Source of the DNA: a virus
DNA length: 12,033 nt
Virus genome (UHGV): UHGV-0311374
Strand: one strand, 5' to 3'
In this document: one piece after another, positions 1,375 to 12,033 of the stretch
Position numbering within the stretch: position 1 is the stretch's first letter
How the letters are laid out: every line of letters starts with the position of its first letter
Program-made: the position numbers and the translations under genes
Notes under the pieces: generated by a model
What the model saw: the letters and a program-made list of their open reading frames with translations, nothing else
Databases searched by the model: none
Told to the model about the DNA's origin: nothing

Positions 1375-1674
1375 ATGAGAACATATTTATCTGGCTTGAC
1401 TGCCAGCGGTTATGCACACCCAAAAATTATCCCAGGCGCTATTTATCTGGATAAGAACGGTAACAGAGTAACGGTAAAAGAACTGATGTTTGACCGTGTG
1501 TATTTTATTCGTGATGGCTATTCATTTCATAGTTCGCTGAACGTGGAGATCTTTATTAGCAGATTCAGGCGGGAAATCCCGCCTTCCAGAAATAACCATG
1601 TGCCATGTATGGATGTTGATAAAAAACTACAGGAACTGAAAAACATGATTGCCGCGTGGAGAGAGCAGAAATGA
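1375..1674 (+). CDS. Hypothetical small protein, 99 aa (possibly DUF4222-like)
   Basis: ATG at 1375 with GGGGA upstream; stop overlaps the primase start (ATGA at 1671-1674); motif YLDKNGNRVTVKELMFDRVYFIRDGY resembles what I recall of small DUF4222 proteins found next to satellite primases; AT-rich. Confidence 0.5.
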   Translation: MRTYLSGLTASGYAHPKIIPGAIYLDKNGNRVTVKELMFDRVYFIRDGYSFHSSLNVEIFISRFRREIPPSRNNHVPCMDVDKKLQELKNMIAAWREQK

Positions 1675-3794
1675 AAAAAGCGCCAAATTTAAAACACCAG
1701 CCACGTGACAAAATGACGGAAGTCATCATTTTTGCGGGTAGTGATGCGTGGGCACATGCGAAGCAGTGGCAGGAACAGGACGGGCGACTGGCTGGCGATA
1801 ACGTGCCTCCTGTCTGGCTTGGAGAGCAACAACTTGCCGAACTGGATAAGCTGCAAATTGTGCCGGAAGGCCGAAAATCAGTACGCATATTCAGGGCCGG
1901 ACATCTTGAGCCAGTAATGATCAAGGCGATTGGTCAGAAGCTGGCGGCGGCAGGCGTACAGGATGCAAATTTTTACCCTGATGGAATGCACGGTCAGGAG
2001 GTGGAGAACTGGCGCGAATATCTGGCCCGTGAGCGGCAGAATCTTTCTGATGGTCTGGTTATTGAGTTTCCGGTAAAGAAAAAAGATACCGGAAGTCATA
2101 GCGATGACGAATTAAAGCCACGCGTTGAAAGTCGCGCCGATGGTGTTTTCTGGGTAACGCCCAAAGTGGATAAGCAGTCAGGCGAAATTATCCGGCCTGA
2201 GACGTGGTTATGTTCTCCGCTTGAACTACTGGGAACGGGGACGATCGGTAAAGAGCATTACCGCGTGATGCGCTGGAAAAAAACCGCAAACCATGAAGTC
2301 ATCACAATGGCGATCCCGTGTGGTGGTATCGGCGACCGTGACGGCTGGCGGTTACTTAAAGATCACGGGCTGAACGTGACAACCAACGGCAAATACAGGG
2401 CAATCCTGGCGGACTGGATGCAGTTAAGCGGAAGCCATGAGGAATGGCAGTTAAGCACAACAACGGGCTGGCATTTTGGCGCGTACATCATGCCGGACGG
2501 TTCGATCATTGGTGATTCTGAAAAACCGATCCTGTTTACCGGAAAAAGCGCCGCGATTAACGGTTATTCCGTGGCGGGTACGGCGGAGGGCTGGCGCGAG
2601 AGTGTGGCGCGGCTGGCTGGCGGTAATGCCTCAATGATGCTGGGTGTGGCAACGTCACTGGCAGCGCCTTTAATTGGCCTTGTGGGTGCTGACGGCTTCG
2701 GGGTGCATCTTTTCGAACAGTCATCGGCAGGTAAGACCACCACGCAGAACATCGCATCAAGTTTATGGGGAGAGCCGGACGCGCAGCGGCTGACCTGGTA
2801 CGGCACGGCGTTAGGTATTGCCAATGAGGCCGAGGCCCATAATGACGGGCTTTTACCACTGGATGAGATAGGCCAGGCCGGAAATGCGCGGGAAGTGTCA
2901 ACGTCTGCTTATACGCTGTTTAACGGTTCAGGGAAATTGCAGGGGGCGAAGGATGGCGGCAACAGGGAGATCAAACACTGGCGAACGGTGGCAATCAGCA
3001 CCGGAGAAATGGACGTTGAGACATTCCTCAAAAGTGAGGGGATAAAAGTTAAGGCGGGGCAGCTTGTCCGACTGCTTAACGTTCCGATGGAAAAAGCCAC
3101 GAAATTTCACGAATACAGCAACGGTAAGGAACATGCTGACGCGTTAAAGGATGCCTGGACAGCAAATCACGGGGCGGCGGGTCGTGAGTGGGTTAAATGG
3201 CTGGCAGGCCACCAGCAGGAGGCAAAGGACACGGTAAGGGAATGCCGCGAACGGTGGCGCAACCTGATACCGGAGAGTTACGGCGAGCAGGTCCACCGCG
3301 TGGGTGAACGTTTCGCCATACTGGAGGCCGCGCTTGTGCTTTCCTGTCATGTAACTGGCTGGGTCGTGCAGGAATGCCGCGACGCGATACAGTATAACTT
3401 TAATGCCTGGGTGAAGGAGTTCGGCACGGGTAACAGGGAATTTAAACAGATGGTTGAACAGGCTGAGGCGTTTTTGTCGTCGTTTGGGTTTAGCCGCTAC
3501 CTTCCGTACCCCAATACAGATGAGCGTGATTTACCGATTAAAGAGCTTGCCGGATACAGAAAAGGGAGCATTCGCAACGAAGATGACGAGATGCGCTATT
3601 ACACGTTCCCGCACGTGTTTGAGAGTGAGATAGCGAAGGGATTTAATCCGGCGCATTTTGCGCGTGCCCTGGATGCTGCCGGAATGCTGGAGAAGGGAAG
3701 CGATCGCCGATACAAAAAAAAGGCGCTGGGCAAGATTGGGGGTAAGCAGCATGTTTTTTACGTGCTGATGTTCCAGCCTGATGATGAAGATTAA
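1671..3794 (+). CDS. Replication initiation protein, primase/helicase-like (P4 alpha / PICI Pri-Rep type), 707 aa
   Basis: Long ORF; ATG at 1671 preceded by GGAGAG (the track's 1656 start is an upstream GTG); Walker A-like motif SSAGKTT in FEQSSAGKTTTQNIASSLWG; sits immediately upstream of an iteron array, as expected for a satellite or plasmid-type initiator. Confidence 0.8.
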   Translation: MKKAPNLKHQPRDKMTEVIIFAGSDAWAHAKQWQEQDGRLAGDNVPPVWLGEQQLAELDKLQIVPEGRKSVRIFRAGHLEPVMIKAIGQKLAAAGVQDANFYPDGMHGQEVENWREYLARERQNLSDGLVIEFPVKKKDTGSHSDDELKPRVESRADGVFWVTPKVDKQSGEIIRPETWLCSPLELLGTGTIGKEHYRVMRWKKTANHEVITMAIPCGGIGDRDGWRLLKDHGLNVTTNGKYRAILADWMQLSGSHEEWQLSTTTGWHFGAYIMPDGSIIGDSEKPILFTGKSAAINGYSVAGTAEGWRESVARLAGGNASMMLGVATSLAAPLIGLVGADGFGVHLFEQSSAGKTTTQNIASSLWGEPDAQRLTWYGTALGIANEAEAHNDGLLPLDEIGQAGNAREVSTSAYTLFNGSGKLQGAKDGGNREIKHWRTVAISTGEMDVETFLKSEGIKVKAGQLVRLLNVPMEKATKFHEYSNGKEHADALKDAWTANHGAAGREWVKWLAGHQQEAKDTVRECRERWRNLIPESYGEQVHRVGERFAILEAALVLSCHVTGWVVQECRDAIQYNFNAWVKEFGTGNREFKQMVEQAEAFLSSFGFSRYLPYPNTDERDLPIKELAGYRKGSIRNEDDEMRYYTFPHVFESEIAKGFNPAHFARALDAAGMLEKGSDRRYKKKALGKIGGKQHVFYVLMFQPDDED

Positions 3795-3816
3795 TCCCCT
3801 GTGTGAGAAAAAAAAT

Positions 3817-4154
3817 TGCGGGTTATGCGGGTTATCCTGTGTATAAGTGTATTAAGTGCATGAATATAAAGGAAACCAATAACCCGCACGTAACCCGCAA
3901 AAGGGCATTTATAACCCGCAAAAGCACGATTATAACCCGCAGGCGAATAACTGAAGTAACACCGGACAGTCATGCGTAACCCGCAGAAAAAACCCCGTTT
4001 GCGGGTTATTTTGAGCGTTTTGCGGGTTACGTGGTGAGCAAATAATAAACAGGGTGTTTTGCAAAATACTGATATAAAAGGATAAAAAATGGTTAGCACG
4101 CTAAGATAACCCAATAACCCGCATAACCCGCACATGTTTCTATATATATATATA
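3817..4154. repeat. Iteron array and AT-rich tract, putative origin of replication
   Basis: 9-bp TAACCCGCA in forward orientation at 3880, 3891, 3912, 3933, 3977, 4115, 4124 (degenerate ATAACCCAA at 4106) and as reverse complement TGCGGGTTA at 3817, 3826, 4000, 4021; followed by (TA)7 at 4141-4154; directly downstream of the primase gene. Confidence 0.75.
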
Positions 4155-4168
4155 AATTGAGGTGGCAA

Positions 4169-4420
4169 ATGACCAGAACACGCAGAGACAGAACAGAGCC
4201 AAAATATAAAGCGTTAGACATGACTGAGCACACCTTAAAGGTGGCAATCAGAACGATAGACCGCCACACGCGGGAAGGATACGCGAAGGAACATCCCGAC
4301 CTGATAAGCGCATTCATGACCACGGCGGCGGCAAACTTTTCCACGCTGACAGAACGGGATATTGCCGAAGCGGAACAGGTAACAACCATCAACGTTAAAA
4401 CCGGAGAGCAGACAGCATGA
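4169..4420 (+). CDS. Hypothetical protein, 83 aa
   Basis: ATG at 4169 with GAGGTG 5 nt upstream (the track's 4157 start is TTG); stop overlaps the next start (ATGA at 4417-4420); no family recognised. Confidence 0.5.
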   Translation: MTRTRRDRTEPKYKALDMTEHTLKVAIRTIDRHTREGYAKEHPDLISAFMTTAAANFSTLTERDIAEAEQVTTINVKTGEQTA

Positions 4421-5396: not shown

Positions 5397-6554
5397 ATGC
5401 CGAGAATAATCGAATTACGCCAGCAGAAAACCGCCATTAAAAATCAGATGCGCGACATGCTGGAGAACGCGGAAAAAGAAAACCGCAGCCTTAACGATGC
5501 TGAGGGCGCAAAATTTGACGAATTACGCGCTAAAGCTGAATCACTCGATAAAGACATCTCCCGCCTTGAGGCCGTTGCTGACGAAGAGCGCAGTAAACCA
5601 GGCAAAAACAGCCAGACCACTGACCCCGCCGAACTACGTCACTACATTCTGACAGGTGAAACCAGCGCATTGAGTACAGGCGTTCCCGCTGATGGTGGTT
5701 ATACCGTTATCCCCGAACTGAACACCGAAATCATGCGAATGCTGACGGATGAATCCACCATGCGCCGCATCTGTACCGTGAAGAAAATCAGCAGCAACGA
5801 GTTTAAGCAGCTTGTTTCCGCTGGCGGTGCGACCGTTAACCACGGTGAAGAGGGTAAGGCACGCGAACAGACCAGCACCCCGCAGATTAACGAGGTGAGC
5901 ATTAAGCTGTATCCGGTCTATGCGTACCCGCGCACCACGCAGGAAATCGTGGATTTTTCCGATGTGGACATCCTTTCATGGCTGACGGGCGAGATTGGCG
6001 ACACCTTCACGGAAACCGAAGAAAGCGATCTGGTTGTGGGCGACGGTGACAAAAAAGCAAAAGGCTTTTTATCCGTACCCCGTGCAGAGAAGAACGACAA
6101 AGAGCGTGATTTTGGTACGTTGCAGGTAATTAAACCTTCCGAATCTCTGGCGTGGACATCTGCGGACCCGCTGATCGACCTGAAATTTGCATTACGTAAA
6201 AAATACCGCAAAAACGCGGTCTGGGTGGTTAACTCCACGACGGCGGCAAAACTCCAGAAGGTGAAGAACGCGAACGGTGATTACATCTGGCGTGACCGTT
6301 TACAGGCGGGTGATCCTGATACGTTGCTGGGCCTTCCGGTCGAATATCTGGAGTTTATGCCTGATAACGTTATTGCCCTGGGTGACTTCAAACGCGGTTA
6401 CTACATTGTTGATCACGAAACAGGTGTTCGCACCAGACCGGACAACCTCACAGAGCCGGGCTTCATCAAAATTTTCACGCAGAAATATTTAGGCGGTGGC
6501 GTGGTGGATTCGAACGCGATCAAGATTCTGGAACTGCCACAGGACGACGATTAA
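5397..6554 (+). CDS. Major capsid protein, HK97 fold, with N-terminal coiled-coil delta/scaffold domain, 385 aa
   Basis: N-terminus MPRIIELRQQKTAIKNQMRDMLENAEKENRSLNDAEGAKFDELRAKAESLDKDISRLEA is typical of a delta domain; GGYTVIPELNTEIMRMLTDESTMRRICTVKK matches the conserved HK97-family capsid region; followed by protease and portal genes. Confidence 0.85.
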   Translation: MPRIIELRQQKTAIKNQMRDMLENAEKENRSLNDAEGAKFDELRAKAESLDKDISRLEAVADEERSKPGKNSQTTDPAELRHYILTGETSALSTGVPADGGYTVIPELNTEIMRMLTDESTMRRICTVKKISSNEFKQLVSAGGATVNHGEEGKAREQTSTPQINEVSIKLYPVYAYPRTTQEIVDFSDVDILSWLTGEIGDTFTETEESDLVVGDGDKKAKGFLSVPRAEKNDKERDFGTLQVIKPSESLAWTSADPLIDLKFALRKKYRKNAVWVVNSTTAAKLQKVKNANGDYIWRDRLQAGDPDTLLGLPVEYLEFMPDNVIALGDFKRGYYIVDHETGVRTRPDNLTEPGFIKIFTQKYLGGGVVDSNAIKILELPQDDD

Positions 6555-6593: not shown

Positions 6594-7166
6594 ATGGGTG
6601 AAAAAATTATGAAGAGTATGGAAATCCGGTCATCGGAAATCACCACCAGCGCCAGCAACACGCTTACAGGCTACGTTGTTCGCTGGGATAACCTTTCAGA
6701 GCTGCTATGGGGGGAGTTTTACGAAAAATTCCAGCGGGGAGCGTTTACTGAATGGCTTGCGGCGGGTAATGACGTTCGCGGCCTGTATGAGCATGACCAC
6801 AGCATGTTGCTGGGGCGTACCCGTTCCGGCACGCTGAAACTGGAAGAGGACGAAACAGGGTTACGCTTTGAACTGACGCCACCGGATACCAGTACAGGGC
6901 GTGACGTTATCGAACTGGTTAAGCGTGGGGACATCTCGGGGATGAGCTTTGGCTTTCGCTCCCGCAAGGATGTATGGGATACCACAACAGATCCATGCGT
7001 GCGCACCGTGCTGGTGGCGGAACTGTACGAAATTACCGTTACATCGGTACCGGCTTACCCCGATTCCGGCGTGGAGCTGGCCCGCCGTTCCCTGTATGAG
7101 CAGCACCCCGAAAAAATGCCGCGTGCGGATAATCGCCGCTGGTGGGCGGATTTAGCGGGGGTGTGA
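6594..7166 (+). CDS. Prohead maturation serine protease, HK97 family, 190 aa (alternative start ATG 6609)
   Basis: GYVVRWDNLSE, GAFTEWL, YEHDHSMLLGRT, LKLEEDETGLRF and ISGMSFGF match the pattern of HK97-type prohead proteases. Confidence 0.85.
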   Translation: MGEKIMKSMEIRSSEITTSASNTLTGYVVRWDNLSELLWGEFYEKFQRGAFTEWLAAGNDVRGLYEHDHSMLLGRTRSGTLKLEEDETGLRFELTPPDTSTGRDVIELVKRGDISGMSFGFRSRKDVWDTTTDPCVRTVLVAELYEITVTSVPAYPDSGVELARRSLYEQHPEKMPRADNRRWWADLAGV

Positions 7167-7167
7167 T

Positions 7168-8379
7168 ATGTGGCCTTTCAGAAGAAAAAAAGAGCAGCGC
7201 AGCATGACGCTTGATGAGTTTATGGCGCTGGCTGGCACATCGAACACGGGGGCGGGTGAGTACGTATCATCGGGGACAGCGGAATCACTGCCCGCCGTCA
7301 TGAACGCCGTCACGGTCATCTCTGAGGCGGTGGCTACCATGCCGTGTTACCTGTACCTGGTACGCAATGAGAAGGGGAAGGAGGCCCGAGAGTGGCTTGA
7401 TTCTCATCCGGTCGATCACATCCTCAACGAGCGCCCGAACTCGTGGCAGACTCCCTACCAGTTTAAGCGAATGATGATCCGCCACTGCCTGTTAAACGGT
7501 AATGCTTATGCGGTGATTCAGTGGGGGCGTGATGGTTTTCCGGTCGCTTTGCATCCTTACCCGCCGCAGTCGGTGAACGTTGAGCAGACAGGTGAGCATA
7601 ACTGGCGCTACTGCATCACTGACGCCTACACCGGAAACACCCGCAACTATTTACCGTGGGAGGTTCTCCACCTTCGTTACTCCACGGATGACGGTTTTAT
7701 GGGGCGCTCACCTGTAACCATCTGCCGCGAATCGCTGGGGCTTGGGCTGGCCCAACAACGCCACGGCGCGAGCGTGATGCGTGATGGCATGATGGCGGCA
7801 GGGGTTATCACGTCAGGCGAATGGCTGGACGGCGTGAAGGGCAAACAGGCATTAGCCGCGCTGGAACGCTACAAAGGGGCCAGAAACGCCGGAAAAACGC
7901 CCATCCTTGAAGGGGGTATGAGCTATCAGCAGCTGGGCATGAGTAATCAGGATGCTGAATGGCTGGCCTCCCGTCGCTTCACCATTGAAGACATCGCCCG
8001 AATGTTCAACGTCTCGCCGATTTTTTTGCAGGAATACAGCAACAGCACCTACAGCAATTTCAGCGAGGCAAGCCGCGCATTTCTCACCATGACGATGCGC
8101 CCGTGGCTGGCGAACTTTGAGCAGCAGATAAAAAACGCCCTGCTGGTGGCCTCGCCTGTACCTGGTATCCGGTATCAGGTTGAGTTTGACAGCGCGGACC
8201 TGTTACGGGCCACACCTGGCGAACGCTTTGCCACCTATGAACGCGGCATCAAATCCGGCGTTATGTGCCCGAACGAAGCCCGCGAACGTGAAGGGCTGTC
8301 CCCGCGTGATGGTGGTGATGAGTTCAGCCAGGCATGGAAACAGGAAGTAAAAATCAGCGAGGGAGAAAAACAGGAATGA
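7168..8379 (+). CDS. Portal protein, HK97 family, 403 aa
   Basis: About 400-aa ORF immediately downstream of the protease, with one nucleotide between stop and start; size, position and sequence character fit HK97-family portals. Confidence 0.8.
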   Translation: MWPFRRKKEQRSMTLDEFMALAGTSNTGAGEYVSSGTAESLPAVMNAVTVISEAVATMPCYLYLVRNEKGKEAREWLDSHPVDHILNERPNSWQTPYQFKRMMIRHCLLNGNAYAVIQWGRDGFPVALHPYPPQSVNVEQTGEHNWRYCITDAYTGNTRNYLPWEVLHLRYSTDDGFMGRSPVTICRESLGLGLAQQRHGASVMRDGMMAAGVITSGEWLDGVKGKQALAALERYKGARNAGKTPILEGGMSYQQLGMSNQDAEWLASRRFTIEDIARMFNVSPIFLQEYSNSTYSNFSEASRAFLTMTMRPWLANFEQQIKNALLVASPVPGIRYQVEFDSADLLRATPGERFATYERGIKSGVMCPNEAREREGLSPRDGGDEFSQAWKQEVKISEGEKQE

Positions 8380-8714
8380 ACATAGGGCGACTGCGTGACA
8401 GGGTAACGATTCAGACCCTGAAACAGACCAGAGCCATGACGGGCGAAATACTCGAAACGTGGGTGGACGGTCACACACTCTGGGCAAGCGTGAACATGAT
8501 CAGCAGCAAGGAGGCCATTTCATCGGGTGTAGAACTGGCGACTGGAACGGTAAGGGTATGGATACGCTACAGGAAGGACATCAACGCCACCAGCCGGATA
8601 AAGGTCAATACGGGGCCGCTGGCGGGGCTTGTACTGAATATCATCGGGCAGCCGCTGCCGGATGCCGCCAGGACACGCCTTGAAATTCTTTGTCGTGAGG
8701 GCGCGGAAAAATGA
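8376..8714 (+). CDS. Head-tail adaptor / head closure protein, 112 aa
   Basis: ATG at 8376 overlaps the portal stop (ATGA); product MNIGRLRDRVTIQ...LWASVNMISSKEA...VRVWIRYRKDINATSRI fits the head-tail joining family pattern. Confidence 0.75.
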   Translation: MNIGRLRDRVTIQTLKQTRAMTGEILETWVDGHTLWASVNMISSKEAISSGVELATGTVRVWIRYRKDINATSRIKVNTGPLAGLVLNIIGQPLPDAARTRLEILCREGAEK

Positions 8715-9007
8715 CAGAAGAACTTATCACCCTGGAAGAAGTGAAACTCCATTGCCGCATCGATGGCGATGAGGAAGACCAGTTAATCAGCGGATACATT
8801 GCCGCATCGCTTGAGGCGTGCCAGATACACATAGGCAGGCGCTTTGATGACGGGCTGGAGTTCACGCCAGCCATAAAGATTGGCTGCATGATGTTTATCG
8901 CTCACCTGTATGAGAATCGCCAGATTGTCGCGGATAACGCAAAAACACGCGTACCCATGACGATTGGCGCACTCTGGACGGCTTACCGTGATGTGGGGGT
9001 GTACTGA
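8711..9007 (+). CDS. Head-tail connector protein (gp6-like), 98 aa
   Basis: ATGA overlap with the upstream gene; LEEVKLHCRIDGDEEDQLISGYIAAS...IAHLYENRQ matches the gp6-like connector family pattern. Confidence 0.75.
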   Translation: MTEELITLEEVKLHCRIDGDEEDQLISGYIAASLEACQIHIGRRFDDGLEFTPAIKIGCMMFIAHLYENRQIVADNAKTRVPMTIGALWTAYRDVGVY

Positions 9008-9447
9008 TGCCGTGGCAACCATTAAGACGATGTACAGAACCAGGCTGCAACAGGCGAGTTAAGTCCGGCAAGTGTGAGGAGCACAGACGCAGCGCACGCC
9101 AGCAGCAGGACAGCCGGAGAGGCAGCAGCAGGGAGCGAGGGTATACGAGGCAGTGGGAGAAATACCGCGCCATGTATCTGAGTAAAAACCCGTTATGTGC
9201 GCATTGCCTGGAAAAAGGAATATACACGCCCGCCGTGGTGGTGGATCACATTATCCCCATCGATGGCGGTAATGATGTTCTCTTCTGGCCTGAGTGGAAT
9301 CATCAGCCATTGTGCCAGGCGTGTCATAACCAGAAAACGAAATGGCTTGATCCGGCAACAAAAAGCAAGCGTGCCGCAGGTGGATTTCATGAAGAGGAAG
9401 AACGGGCCGCTAACCGCAATAACTGGATGTATGACGCTGATGAATGA
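9007..9447 (+). CDS. HNH endonuclease (terminase-associated), 146 aa
   Basis: TGATG overlap with the upstream gene; Cys-rich N-terminus (CTEPGCNRRVKSGKCEEH) and HNH core CAHCLEKG...VVDHIIPIDGGNDVLFWPEWNHQPLCQACHNQK; sits just upstream of terS/terL as in HK97-like cos phages. Confidence 0.85.
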   Translation: MPWQPLRRCTEPGCNRRVKSGKCEEHRRSARQQQDSRRGSSRERGYTRQWEKYRAMYLSKNPLCAHCLEKGIYTPAVVVDHIIPIDGGNDVLFWPEWNHQPLCQACHNQKTKWLDPATKSKRAAGGFHEEEERAANRNNWMYDADE

Positions 9448-9736
9448 GCTGGAACAAAACCGCCTTATCCGTGGACTTATAAGGCAGCGTGACGCATGGA
9501 AGACACAGGAAACAGGGCATAAAGATAAAGCGTCAGGACGCGCAGAACGCATCACAGCGACGCGATTAACCGACCGTGACCGCGAGGTTATGGAATGTTT
9601 CCGCAATCGCTGATGAGGTAGCCGGACGGGGTGGGGGGAGTTTTCAGGACGAACCCGACCCCGCCCAGAACCGACCGCCTCCTCAAATTTTTATGCACGG
9701 GAATTTTTTGAAAAATAATCTGGCGAAAAAATAAGC

Positions 9737-10093
9737 ATGGCAAGACCACCGAAAGCCCCCGCCTACCTGGATGACATCGCCGTGAAGCAGTGGCGGGAAA
9801 AATCGCGGCAGCTTGCGGAACGGGGAGACCTGACCCCCGCCGACTGGAGCAATCTGGAACTGTATTGTGTCAACTACTCCATTTACCGGAAAGCCGTCGC
9901 AGACCTTGCGGCGCGCGGGTTCAGCATTGTTAACAGTCAGGGCGGCGAGAGCAGAAACCCCGCATTAAGCGCGAAATCAGACGCTGAAAGGGTGATGATA
10001 AAAATGGCCTCCTTGCTCGGTTTTGACCCGATAAGCCGTCGTAAAAATCCACCGGAAACAGAAGAAGAGGACGAGCTTGACCGCCTGGAATAA
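9737..10093 (+). CDS. terS: Terminase small subunit (P27-family-like), 118 aa
   Basis: Product fits the P27-type small terminase pattern (W...LTPADWSNLELYCVNYSIYRKA...SRNPALSA...LLGFDPISRRK); directly upstream of and overlapping the large terminase. Confidence 0.8.
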   Translation: MARPPKAPAYLDDIAVKQWREKSRQLAERGDLTPADWSNLELYCVNYSIYRKAVADLAARGFSIVNSQGGESRNPALSAKSDAERVMIKMASLLGFDPISRRKNPPETEEEDELDRLE

Positions 10094-11738
10094 GTACGCA
10101 GAAGACGTAAAAACGGGCAAAATTCCGGCCTGTAAACGGCTGAAACAGGCCGTTAAACGGTACTTTTCGGACCTTAAAAACCCCCTTTATACGTTCGAAC
10201 GTGAGGCCGTGGAGCGGTTTATTGCCTTTTCCAGGGTGTGCCCGCACGTAAAAGGGCCGATGCGTGGCAGACCCATTGAGCTGGAGCCGTGGCAGCAGTT
10301 CGCCTTTGCGTGCATCCTCGGCTTTAAGGTTAAGGCCACCGGACGGCGCAAATACACGAGCGCCTTTATCGAAGTGCCGCGCAAAAATGCGAAATCCACG
10401 ACCGCCGCGATTCTGGCTAACTGGTTTCTGATTATGGAGAACGGGCAGCAGGATATCTACACCGCAGCGGTGAGCCGTGACCAGGCGCGGATCGTTTTTG
10501 ATGATGCGCGTCAGATGTGCCTTTTATCCCGACCGTTACGCAGGCGGGTGAATATTCAGGCCCACAAGGTGATGCACCCGAAAAGCAACAGCCTGTTAAA
10601 GCCGCTGGCAGCAAAAGCGGCAACCATCGAGGGAACAAACCCCAGCCTTTCCATCGTGGACGAATACCACCTACACCCCGATAACGGCGTTTATTCCGCG
10701 CTTGAGCTGGGGATGGGCGCACGTCCCGAAGGGCTGTTATTTGCCATTACTACATCGGGCAGTAACGTCGTTTCAGCCTGTAAACAGCACTATGATTATT
10801 GCTGCCAGATCCTGGACGGCGAAGAGGTCAACGATTCAATTTTTGTACTGATTTACGAACTGGACGACGAAAACGAGGTTGATGATCCGGCGATGTGGAT
10901 AAAGGCTAACCCTAACATCGATGTTTCCGTCGATCGTGAAAAACTGGCCTCAACCATCCAGAAAGCGCGGGGTATTCCGTCGCAGTGGGTGGAGATGATG
11001 ACAAAGCGATTTAATATCTGGTGCCAGGGGGCTACCCCGTGGATGGGTAACGGCGCATGGGCTGAGTGTGCCGGAACGTTCACGGAGGAAGATTTACACG
11101 GCCAGGAGTGTTACGCGGGGCTGGACTTATCATCAACCAGCGATATTTCCAGCGTGTGCTATGCCTTTCCGGTCGGTAAAACCATTATGCTGGTTTCCCG
11201 TCACTATCTGCCGGAATTTCAGCTACAGAACCCCGCCAATAAAAACCGCGCTGTCTATCGCCAGTGGGCTAAAGCAGGCTGGATACGCACAACGCCTGGC
11301 GACTGCATTGATTACGACCGGATCAGAGATGACATCATGCAGGACGCGGAGAAATTTAATATCAGGCTGGTGGGCTTTGATACGTGGAACGCCACGCATC
11401 TCAGGACGCAATTACAGGGGGCAGGTTTTGAGGTGGAGCCGTTCCCGCAAACCTACCTCAGATTCAGTCCGGCGGCGAAATCGTTCGAAGTTTTTGTTAA
11501 CCGCAGGGTGATTGTGCATCGTGGCGATCCGGTGCTGTCTTGGTCGATGAGTAACGTCGTGATGCAGAGTGACGCGAACGCCAATATCAAGCCGAACAAG
11601 AAAAAATCACCGAACAAGATAGACCCGAGCGTGGCGGCGCTGATGGCGTTTGGTACATTCCAGGCAGAGCATGAGGATTTTGCTTTTGATATAAGCGACA
11701 GCCACCGCCAGAAACTGGAAGAATTTAGCGGGGTGTAA
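10077..11738 (+). CDS. terL: Terminase large subunit, 553 aa, apparent TTG start overlapping terS by 17 nt
   Basis: N-terminus WNKYAEDVKTGKIPACKRLKQAVKRYFSDL and the long ATPase/nuclease-sized ORF; the first in-frame ATG (10260) would remove this conserved N-terminal region, so the TTG at 10077 or an unconventional initiation is implied. Confidence 0.85.
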   Translation: MTAWNKYAEDVKTGKIPACKRLKQAVKRYFSDLKNPLYTFEREAVERFIAFSRVCPHVKGPMRGRPIELEPWQQFAFACILGFKVKATGRRKYTSAFIEVPRKNAKSTTAAILANWFLIMENGQQDIYTAAVSRDQARIVFDDARQMCLLSRPLRRRVNIQAHKVMHPKSNSLLKPLAAKAATIEGTNPSLSIVDEYHLHPDNGVYSALELGMGARPEGLLFAITTSGSNVVSACKQHYDYCCQILDGEEVNDSIFVLIYELDDENEVDDPAMWIKANPNIDVSVDREKLASTIQKARGIPSQWVEMMTKRFNIWCQGATPWMGNGAWAECAGTFTEEDLHGQECYAGLDLSSTSDISSVCYAFPVGKTIMLVSRHYLPEFQLQNPANKNRAVYRQWAKAGWIRTTPGDCIDYDRIRDDIMQDAEKFNIRLVGFDTWNATHLRTQLQGAGFEVEPFPQTYLRFSPAAKSFEVFVNRRVIVHRGDPVLSWSMSNVVMQSDANANIKPNKKKSPNKIDPSVAALMAFGTFQAEHEDFAFDISDSHRQKLEEFSGV

Positions 11739-11751
11739 TGAGGTCAGCAGC

Positions 11752-12033
11752 ATGACAGAAGCCGAAATAACGGGATTAATCCGCCGCGTTGCCGGAATCA
11801 GCCAGCAGGCTGACGAACAGGCCACGCAGCCGGACAGCGTGACAGCCGAAAACTATGCGCGTGTTGTTGCTGAGGTGATGCGCCGTGATGGTATCCAGCT
11901 TAATGATGTGGATATGCGCAACATACGGATCCGCGTTCTTGAAATGCTGGCCTACCGTCGCCGCGTGCAGACGTACAGGGAAAAAGCAAAAATAACGTAC
12001 CAGTGGAAGAAGCCGGAGCGATTACGGCGGTAA
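11752..12033 (+). CDS. Hypothetical protein, 93 aa
   Basis: ATG at 11752 with GAGG 8 nt upstream; complete ORF whose stop is the last codon of the window; no family recognised. Confidence 0.45.
   Translation: MTEAEITGLIRRVAGISQQADEQATQPDSVTAENYARVVAEVMRRDGIQLNDVDMRNIRIRVLEMLAYRRRVQTYREKAKITYQWKKPERLRR

Follow-up and report, generated by a model that had tools for sequence, protein, structure and literature searches.

The 12,033-nt stretch analysed here (the window) belongs to a capsid-forming phage-inducible chromosomal island (cf-PICI) of the EcCIEDL933 type. The island encodes its own capsid, protease, portal, connectors, HNH endonuclease, terS and terL and carries no tail or lysis genes; a cf-PICI is also defined by an island size of 10-18 kb, and the ends of this island fall outside the 12,033-nt window. 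The packaging module runs in the order capsid, protease, portal, head closure, adaptor, HNH, small ORF, terS and terL, and the genes bearing on the present analysis are as follows.

1656-3794, plus strand: DUF927 primase
5397-6554, plus strand: major capsid protein
6594-7166, plus strand: prohead protease
7168-8379, plus strand: portal
8334-8714, plus strand: head closure protein
8711-9007, plus strand: head-tail adaptor
9007-9447, plus strand: HNH endonuclease with N-terminal zinc ribbon (CxxxxC...CxxH); Pfam HNH, E 9.4e-8; phrog_144, E 7e-43
9431-9613, plus strand: 60-aa small basic protein (phrog_3173)
9737-10093, plus strand: small terminase (terS) of the P27 family (Terminase_4); PF05119, E 1.3e-23; TIGR01558, E 1.9e-16; phrog_83
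10077-11738, plus strand: large terminase (terL), HK97-like ATPase and nuclease; PF03354, PF20441

Of 5,426 complete E. coli genomes, 514 carry the region 9000-10100, with identities of 80-99% and in every case on the chromosome, and the closest relative, EC100 (98% identical), harbors a ~15-kb island with an integrase that is inserted in tqsA. It has been shown that cf-PICIs need their own packaging genes, package only themselves and take only tails from the helper phage (10.1101/2022.09.08.507074), and the packaged cf-PICI DNA has been reported to possess cohesive ends (10.1101/2025.02.11.637232). Within the literature searched, the cos site of a cf-PICI is assumed but nowhere mapped. Downstream of terL, an ORF at 11752-12033 runs off the end of the window; no family in NCBIfam matches it, and its EC100 counterpart is labelled hypothetical. 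In the record of vB_KppS-Ant (LR881103), a 2.3-kb gene right after terL (2036-4333) bears the annotation 'tail length tape measure protein'; this is surprising, since a cf-PICI satellite is said to encode no tail.

An earlier note on this DNA had proposed a candidate cos or packaging site between the HNH gene and terS, in a gap of 290 bp that might also express an unannotated 60-aa ORF. The borders of the gap are correct, with HNH ending at 9447 and terS starting at 9737, but the interval is not empty. The ORF at 9431-9613, whose translation begins MTLMNELEQNRLIRGLIRQRD..., overlaps the HNH stop by 17 nt and gives a full-length hit to phrog_3173 (E 1.8e-35; residues 4-60 aligned with positions 1-57 of the 57-position profile). 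The median dN/dS of the ORF is 0.42, with values below 1 in 1,232 of 1,232 pairs, both other frames contain stops, and the reading frame is kept over ~10 genera together with the invariant C-terminus RDRE.xE.FRNR. Judged by these signatures of sequence evolution, the 60-aa ORF is a genuine gene that evolves under purifying selection, and the non-coding gap therefore shrinks to 9614-9736, that is, 123 bp. The ORF is also not unannotated, as RefSeq relatives list it as 'hypothetical protein'. It is matched by no Pfam or NCBIfam family and is absent from the Xenorhabdus and Pasteurellaceae islands. Two alternative ORFs, at 9576-9734 (plus strand) and 9588-9749 (minus strand), were discarded, as neither matched a family.

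Acinetobacter phage AbIPP1 (442-660) and phage HK97 (447-698; unannotated in NC_002167) each hold a small ORF between HNH and cos. Kinship of the 60-aa ORF with these genes was rejected, because they share no sequence similarity; it is the slot that is conserved, not the gene. For EcCIEDL933, mutating 'hypothetical gene 1792' lowered island transfer (EcCIEDL933 paper). The 60-aa ORF may correspond to this gene, with the ORF at 11752-12033 being the other candidate.

To delineate the elements of the gap, we used three sets of relatives: sequences retrieved by DNA similarity, 107 non-redundant viral contigs found by motif, and 80 loci from species-representative genomes chosen by TerS protein similarity alone. 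The TerS-only selection was included because it avoids the circularity of motif-based sampling. The same layout was seen in all three sets, and also in phages HK97 and AbIPP1. It comprises the following elements, given without strand.

9628-9650: G-run block, consisting of the G-run GGGGTGGGGG, two variable bases and GTTTTCAGGAC; near-invariant, with a T/A stretch ending in GAC
9651-9667: spacer, variable in sequence and conserved in length; entropy 0.7-1.7 bits per column
9668-9692: predicted nicking core, passing from GC-rich to AT, GAACCGACCGCCTCCTCAAATTTTT; consensus GAACCGCC..CC.CTCAAATTTTT; highly conserved
9693-9717: GC box and T6 tract, candidate TerS-binding (cosB-like) element, ATGCACGGGAATTTTTTGAAAAATA; consensus AYGCACGG..ATTTTTTTGAAAATAA; high conservation
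9718-9736: stretch before the terS start, poorly conserved

The core is located 39-82 nt upstream of terS in 75 of the 80 TerS-selected loci, which cover Enterobacterales, Orbales and Pasteurellales; of the five exceptions, two are contig ends, two are Pasteurellaceae loci whose upstream region differs, and one is a Shigella copy. Where both elements are present, the G-run (allowing up to two substitutions) lies 53-57 bp upstream of the core in all but one of the TerS-selected loci (75/76). The G-run block is invariant in 7/7 similarity-retrieved sequences, down to an overall identity of 69%, and recurs in the Pasteurella islands, AbIPP1 and HK97. The Pasteurella islands, with a TerS 66% identical and no small ORF, retain all elements, GC box and T-tract included. 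Within the window, the G-run pattern GGGGNGGGGG is matched once, compared to 0.14 matches expected, and at least one match appeared in 25 of 200 shuffles. As this count is not beyond chance, the significance of the G-run rests on its conservation.

Individual genomes show further changes at the site. In Shigella flexneri SFBU1023, a 103-bp deletion (equivalent to 9666-9768) between CCCCGCC repeats (9659-9665 and 9762-9768) took the cos core and the terS start, such that the island cannot be mobilised. In Xenorhabdus hominickii, the G-run upstream of terS has grown to five GGGGTA units, and each Xenorhabdus genome carries several island copies, frequently located at contig ends (in X. innexi, at least six contigs hold one). 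The window also contains AACCGACCG, 9 nt long, as a direct repeat, at 9568-9576 within the small ORF and at 9669-9677 within the cos core; relatives do not have it as a repeat, and it is probably due to chance.

The earlier note had singled out a G-run, GGACGGGGTGGGGGGAG (9624-9640), and a C-run, CCCGACCCCGCCCAGAACCGACCGCC (9654-9679), followed by an AT-rich stretch, and inspection of the sequence confirmed both positions and the AT-rich stretch behind the C-run. The G-run and the first part of the C-run form a 13-nt inverted repeat with 11 of 13 positions matching (9624-9636 / 9654-9666) around a 17-nt loop, and the minimum-free-energy fold pairs the two runs. The repeat could be read as a hairpin, formed in RNA or in single-stranded DNA, by which transcription would be terminated or attenuated on its way from the small ORF into terS. 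Such a role is nevertheless very unlikely. A terminator-like site was not found, there being no T-run behind the stem, the z-score of the fold is only -1.7, and Rfam returned no match. Over 86 non-identical relatives, the complementarity of the G-run to downstream DNA amounted to 7.1 pairs vs 6.6 pairs in composition-matched shuffles (median p 0.51). Moreover, the 3' arm sits in the variable spacer, while the G-run is invariant, and terS and terL need to be expressed from the same operon. The hairpin is thus real in the window but lineage-specific, and we rejected a terminator or structured RNA as the function of the gap.

The AT block (9680-9717) has an entropy of 0.31, which corresponds to the level of non-synonymous codon positions, compared to 0.84-1.07 at third codon positions. 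Its AT-richness, its location immediately before terS and a TTGAAA within it would also suit a mere promoter, operator or translation-initiation region serving terS-terL, in which case the packaging site would reside elsewhere in the island. We regard this explanation as quite unlikely, given that no sigma-70-like promoter was found on the plus strand and that the 19 nt right before the terS start, the expected place of a ribosome site, are the least conserved (entropy 1.07 over 9720-9736). Furthermore, the distance from core to terS varies between 39 and 82 nt, while that from core to G-run is fixed, and the same layout marks the mapped cos of HK97; the contig termini described below also fall in the region of AT block and core. 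The sole promoter-like site in 9300-9900 is a minus-strand sigma-70-like TTGCCA-17-GATTAT (9743-9715) that points from terS into the cos site.

Assigning this region to cos also bears on the annotation of terS. Related islands often have terS entries of 165 aa instead of 118, with 47 codons added upstream, across the cut site. A 1-nt length difference in GAAAA(A)TAA opens the terS frame over cos, which leads gene callers to extend terS. In the window, the upstream frame is closed by a TAA at 9716-9718 (relevant stretch 9596-9736). The cos prediction hence reveals a common annotation error, in which terS is stretched over the cos site.

We compared the gap with the cos site of HK97, which yields 10-nt 3' overhangs (PMC9410871). 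HK97 DNA is cut between -1 and +1, and its TerS binds +15..+29 via T16, the C:G pair 21 and an A-tract (10.1101/2023.07.17.549218; PMC11331095). With +1 set as base 1 of the HK97 record, the right end of the phage reads ...GGGCAGGGGGGGGG-N29-GACCGCCGCCAAA and its left end GTTTGAATTTAACGCTAACCCGATTTTTTTAG.... The island TerL is homologous to HK97 gp2 (27% identity over 506 aligned positions, E 8e-47) and its HNH protein to gp74 (41% identity, E 2e-18), and, as in HK97, the site is located between HNH and terS-terL, just upstream of terS. Both share the order G-run, ~40 nt, ACCGCC..., cut, AT-rich segment, GC box and T-tract, at almost the same spacing. From G-run to T-tract, ten systems align near-ungapped, namely five enterobacterial island lineages, two Pasteurellales islands, the window, AbIPP1 and HK97. 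The pairwise alignment of the window with HK97 reached z = 4.5, yet some shuffles and control segments score equally, so that this comparison is only suggestive. We also built a weight matrix from 40 non-identical TerS-selected cf-PICI gaps. Its top sites were the HK97 cos (best of 5.9 kb) and the AbIPP1 gap, both in register, with a null rate of 4-6e-6 per position (3.1 million positions) and no such score in 5,000 composition-matched shuffles; in absolute terms the matrix scores are negative, and the DNA similarity to HK97 is modest. By alignment and by weight matrix alike, -1/+1 of HK97 maps to 9681/9682. The homology of TerL and HNH is accompanied by in-register DNA similarity at the site itself.

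The positions of the two nicks can be approached from the enzymes. The island HNH aligns over its full length, zinc ribbon included, with the HNH nickase of GVE2 (PDB 5H0M, E 1.9e-17). GVE2 HNHE and several cos-adjacent phage HNH proteins nick CG/GT (the slash marking the nick), opposite AC^CG, and the nicking specificity of HK97 gp74 itself was reported as undetermined (PMC3592412). In the ten aligned systems, ACC is invariant, at 9670-9672 in the window and -12..-10 in HK97. The full ACCG is found at 9670-9673 and -12..-9, respectively; in 17 of 75 lineages the fourth base reads A instead, and the Xenorhabdus group shows a shift of 1 nt. Combining a bottom-strand nick at AC^CG with the top-strand cut of HK97 between -1 and +1 gives exactly the 10-nt 3' overhang of the phage, CGCCGCCAAA. 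By analogy, the island would be nicked between 9671 and 9672 on the bottom strand and between 9681 and 9682 on the top strand, resulting in a predicted 10-nt 3' cohesive end CGACCGCCTC (9672-9681) and a predicted left end beginning at 9682 with CTCAAATTTT.... We consider it likely, though with some reserve, that these exact positions apply to this island. The HNH protein is predicted to make the bottom-strand nick and TerL the top-strand nick. An ACCR motif is found exactly where nicking would yield the 10-nt overhang, and the island HNH resembles the zinc-ribbon HNH nickases encoded beside cos and terminase genes, such as N.phiGamma and GVE2 HNHE (PMC3592412, PMC5304195); the characterised members come from phages of Gram-positive hosts, and nicking by the island enzyme is predicted. 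Further downstream, the GC box and T6 tract coincide with the position aligned with the HK97 TerS site (+15..+29), corresponding to 9696-9710 and including the A/T tract. On this sequence basis, the segment 9693-9717 is the best candidate for the TerS-binding site.

The nick prediction had been set down before a test on natural termini was found. Only two motif-containing viral contigs truly end within the gap. One of these, the 15,518-nt metagenome contig IMGVR_UViG_3300022664_000095, ends ...CAAGGCAC, equivalent to 9671, and starts CTCAAATTTTTACGC..., equivalent to 9682 and, in the TerS-based scan, 60 nt upstream of terS. Its two ends do not overlap. In 43 of 43 integrated relatives having both flanks, exactly 10 nt separate the two contig-end points, most often CACCCGCCCC. 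A linear genome whose 10-nt 3' overhangs went in end repair would look like this contig. The terminus evidence comes from this single metagenome contig of a related island, for which sample type and library preparation are not given, and no second contig with exact termini was found among E. coli-type viral contigs or bulk metagenome contigs.

Packaging by a headful (pac) mechanism, without a defined cohesive-end site, would be an alternative, as many satellites have small terminases that act at pac sites. Nothing specific speaks for it here. HNH-dependent cos systems are recognised by an HK97-like TerL encoded together with an HNH partner, as in this island, and cohesive ends have been reported for cf-PICIs. 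The linear contig of the relative has precise ends and no terminal overlap, unlike the circular permutation and terminal redundancy, with no fixed right end, that characterise headful packaging. In the light of these points, headful packaging of this island is extremely unlikely.

Breaks within the gap, off the predicted termini, occur in two virion-derived sequences as well, namely vB_KppS-Ant and the island portion of P12620-1. vB_KppS-Ant ends at the equivalent of 9650, reading ...GGTTTTCAGGAC, precisely where the G-run block stops, and its first base corresponds to 9724. Since the G-run block is in addition the most invariant portion of the gap, it might be taken as the cut site itself, leaving the downstream core only for TerS binding or terS expression. 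However, the start of vB_KppS-Ant lies 69 nt further on than the integrated relatives require, and this shortfall indicates that sequence was lost rather than an end marked. The ends of the metagenome contig flank 10 nt at the core, away from the G-run, and the mapped HK97 cut lies 43-56 bp downstream of the G-run. Cleavage at the G-run block is therefore improbable, and we retain the core as the predicted cut site.

Several other record ends proved uninformative. 'Klebsiella phage P12620-1' (PQ569648.1, 106.5 kb) holds a cf-PICI at 90.6-106.5 kb in packaged permutation, bounded by codon 2 of terS and by the small-ORF end, and joined to unrelated DNA. The record looks like a chimeric assembly, and its end was rejected as a terminus owing to the chimeric join at terS codon 2. 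The end of the AbIPP1 record was set aside because the record had been re-oriented to begin at terS, and apparent contig ends within the gap in L028, L055, L115 and L128 turned out to be storage-chunk boundaries instead.

With its gene context, the conservation and spacing of its elements, the HK97 register and the termini of a relative flanking 10 nt, the segment 9628-9717 is very probably a cos site belonging to the island itself, an HNH-dependent one of the HK97 type. Such a feature, laid out like the HK97 cos, is to be expected here, and only the nucleotide-level detail is new. The placement of cos between HNH and terS, put forward in the earlier note, is thus supported by the conserved layout, the HK97 register and the contig termini of the relative. 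Its reading of the G-run and C-run as cos has to be split: the second half of the C-run is the predicted cohesive end (9672-9681), whereas the first half belongs to the variable spacer. The G-run represents a subsite on the upstream side, conserved and ~44 bp away from the closer of the two nicks, but not itself the cut site, and the probable TerS site is contained in the AT-rich stretch. The stretch 9620-9680, which had been proposed for deletion, covers the G-run and most of the cohesive end and excludes the probable TerS site.

The comparison with HK97 also discloses differences. The two cos sites are only about half identical in sequence, and the overhang inferred for the island, CGACCGCCTC, has the same length of 10 nt as that of HK97, CGCCGCCAAA, but not its sequence. 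A different small gene is placed between HNH and cos, and the island's element belongs to a satellite without tail genes. The island TerS is a P27/Terminase_4 protein that showed no sequence or profile similarity to HK97 TerS (gp1). The two proteins probably share the same fold, as the five best PDB matches of the predicted island TerS structure are all HK97 TerS chains (TM 0.51-0.59, probability up to 0.99), with weak E-values (0.08-1.2) and a model pLDDT of 72.

These differences bear on the privacy of packaging. HK106 and HK446, the helper phages of EcCIEDL933, carry the HK97 cos at 96-98% identity. Helper and island sites have a common layout, while their overhangs and TerS-site sequences differ, which upholds the suggestion of the earlier note that the island possesses a private cos. 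Because cos, overhang, TerS site and TerS itself all differ, we propose that each machinery would package only its own DNA, in keeping with published work according to which helper and island packaging exclude each other.

Seen against other systems, the site resembles the three-part cosQ-cosN-cosB arrangement of lambda, in which the nicking site is flanked upstream by an element that the translocating motor reaches first and downstream by a region for TerS binding next to terS (PMC13595911). Lambda, in contrast, has a gpNu1-type TerS, no HNH partner and a 12-nt 5' overhang, compared to the predicted 3' overhang of the island, which moreover has an HNH partner, an unrelated TerS family and no R-site repeats. 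With a P27 TerS, an HNH gene and an architecture matching HK97, the site is not of the lambda type. As in P4, cos-type SaPIs and Rpp-type PICIs, a satellite-borne packaging signal secures the satellite's own encapsidation (10.1101/2022.09.08.507074). Those satellites borrow the helper cos or redirect the helper terminase, whereas the present island would rely on its own TerS, TerL and HNH.

We infer that this island behaves like its contig relative, and likewise which protein cuts which strand, where TerS is placed and what the G-run does. Upon induction by a helper phage, the island DNA would be replicated as concatemers. TerS (P27) would bind the GC box and T-tract just downstream of the cut (~9693-9717) and recruit TerL and HNH. 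The bottom strand would be nicked at AC^CG (9671/9672), most likely by the zinc-ribbon HNH, and the top strand 10 nt away (9681/9682), most likely by TerL, and both nicks together would generate the 10-nt 3' cohesive end CGACCGCCTC. Packaging should then start at the terS side, cross the island and stop at the next cos, where the G-run block (9628-9650), fixed ~44 bp from the nick, would be encountered first. The block occupies a cosQ-like position. Tentatively, the G-run ~44 bp upstream of the nick might be an undescribed subsite of HK97-type cos, read by TerL-HNH or acting like cosQ in termination, in combination with HNH cutting the bottom and TerL the top strand. We offer this combined proposal as a possibility less favored than the assignment of the cos site itself.

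If true, the G-run subsite would be common to phages and satellites with TerS proteins that are dissimilar in sequence. Likewise, the location of AC^CR exactly 10 nt from the top-strand cut would point toward a division of labour between HNH and TerL, a question raised but unsettled in the HK97 field. The predicted cos makes two experiments direct, namely testing helper/satellite exclusion by swapping cos and assigning strands in HNH-dependent terminases, and its nucleotide-level definition should be useful for minimal packaging substrates in cf-PICI-based DNA delivery. For the islands themselves, the site matters because cf-PICIs move from one species to another in capsids of their own, filled with no DNA but theirs.
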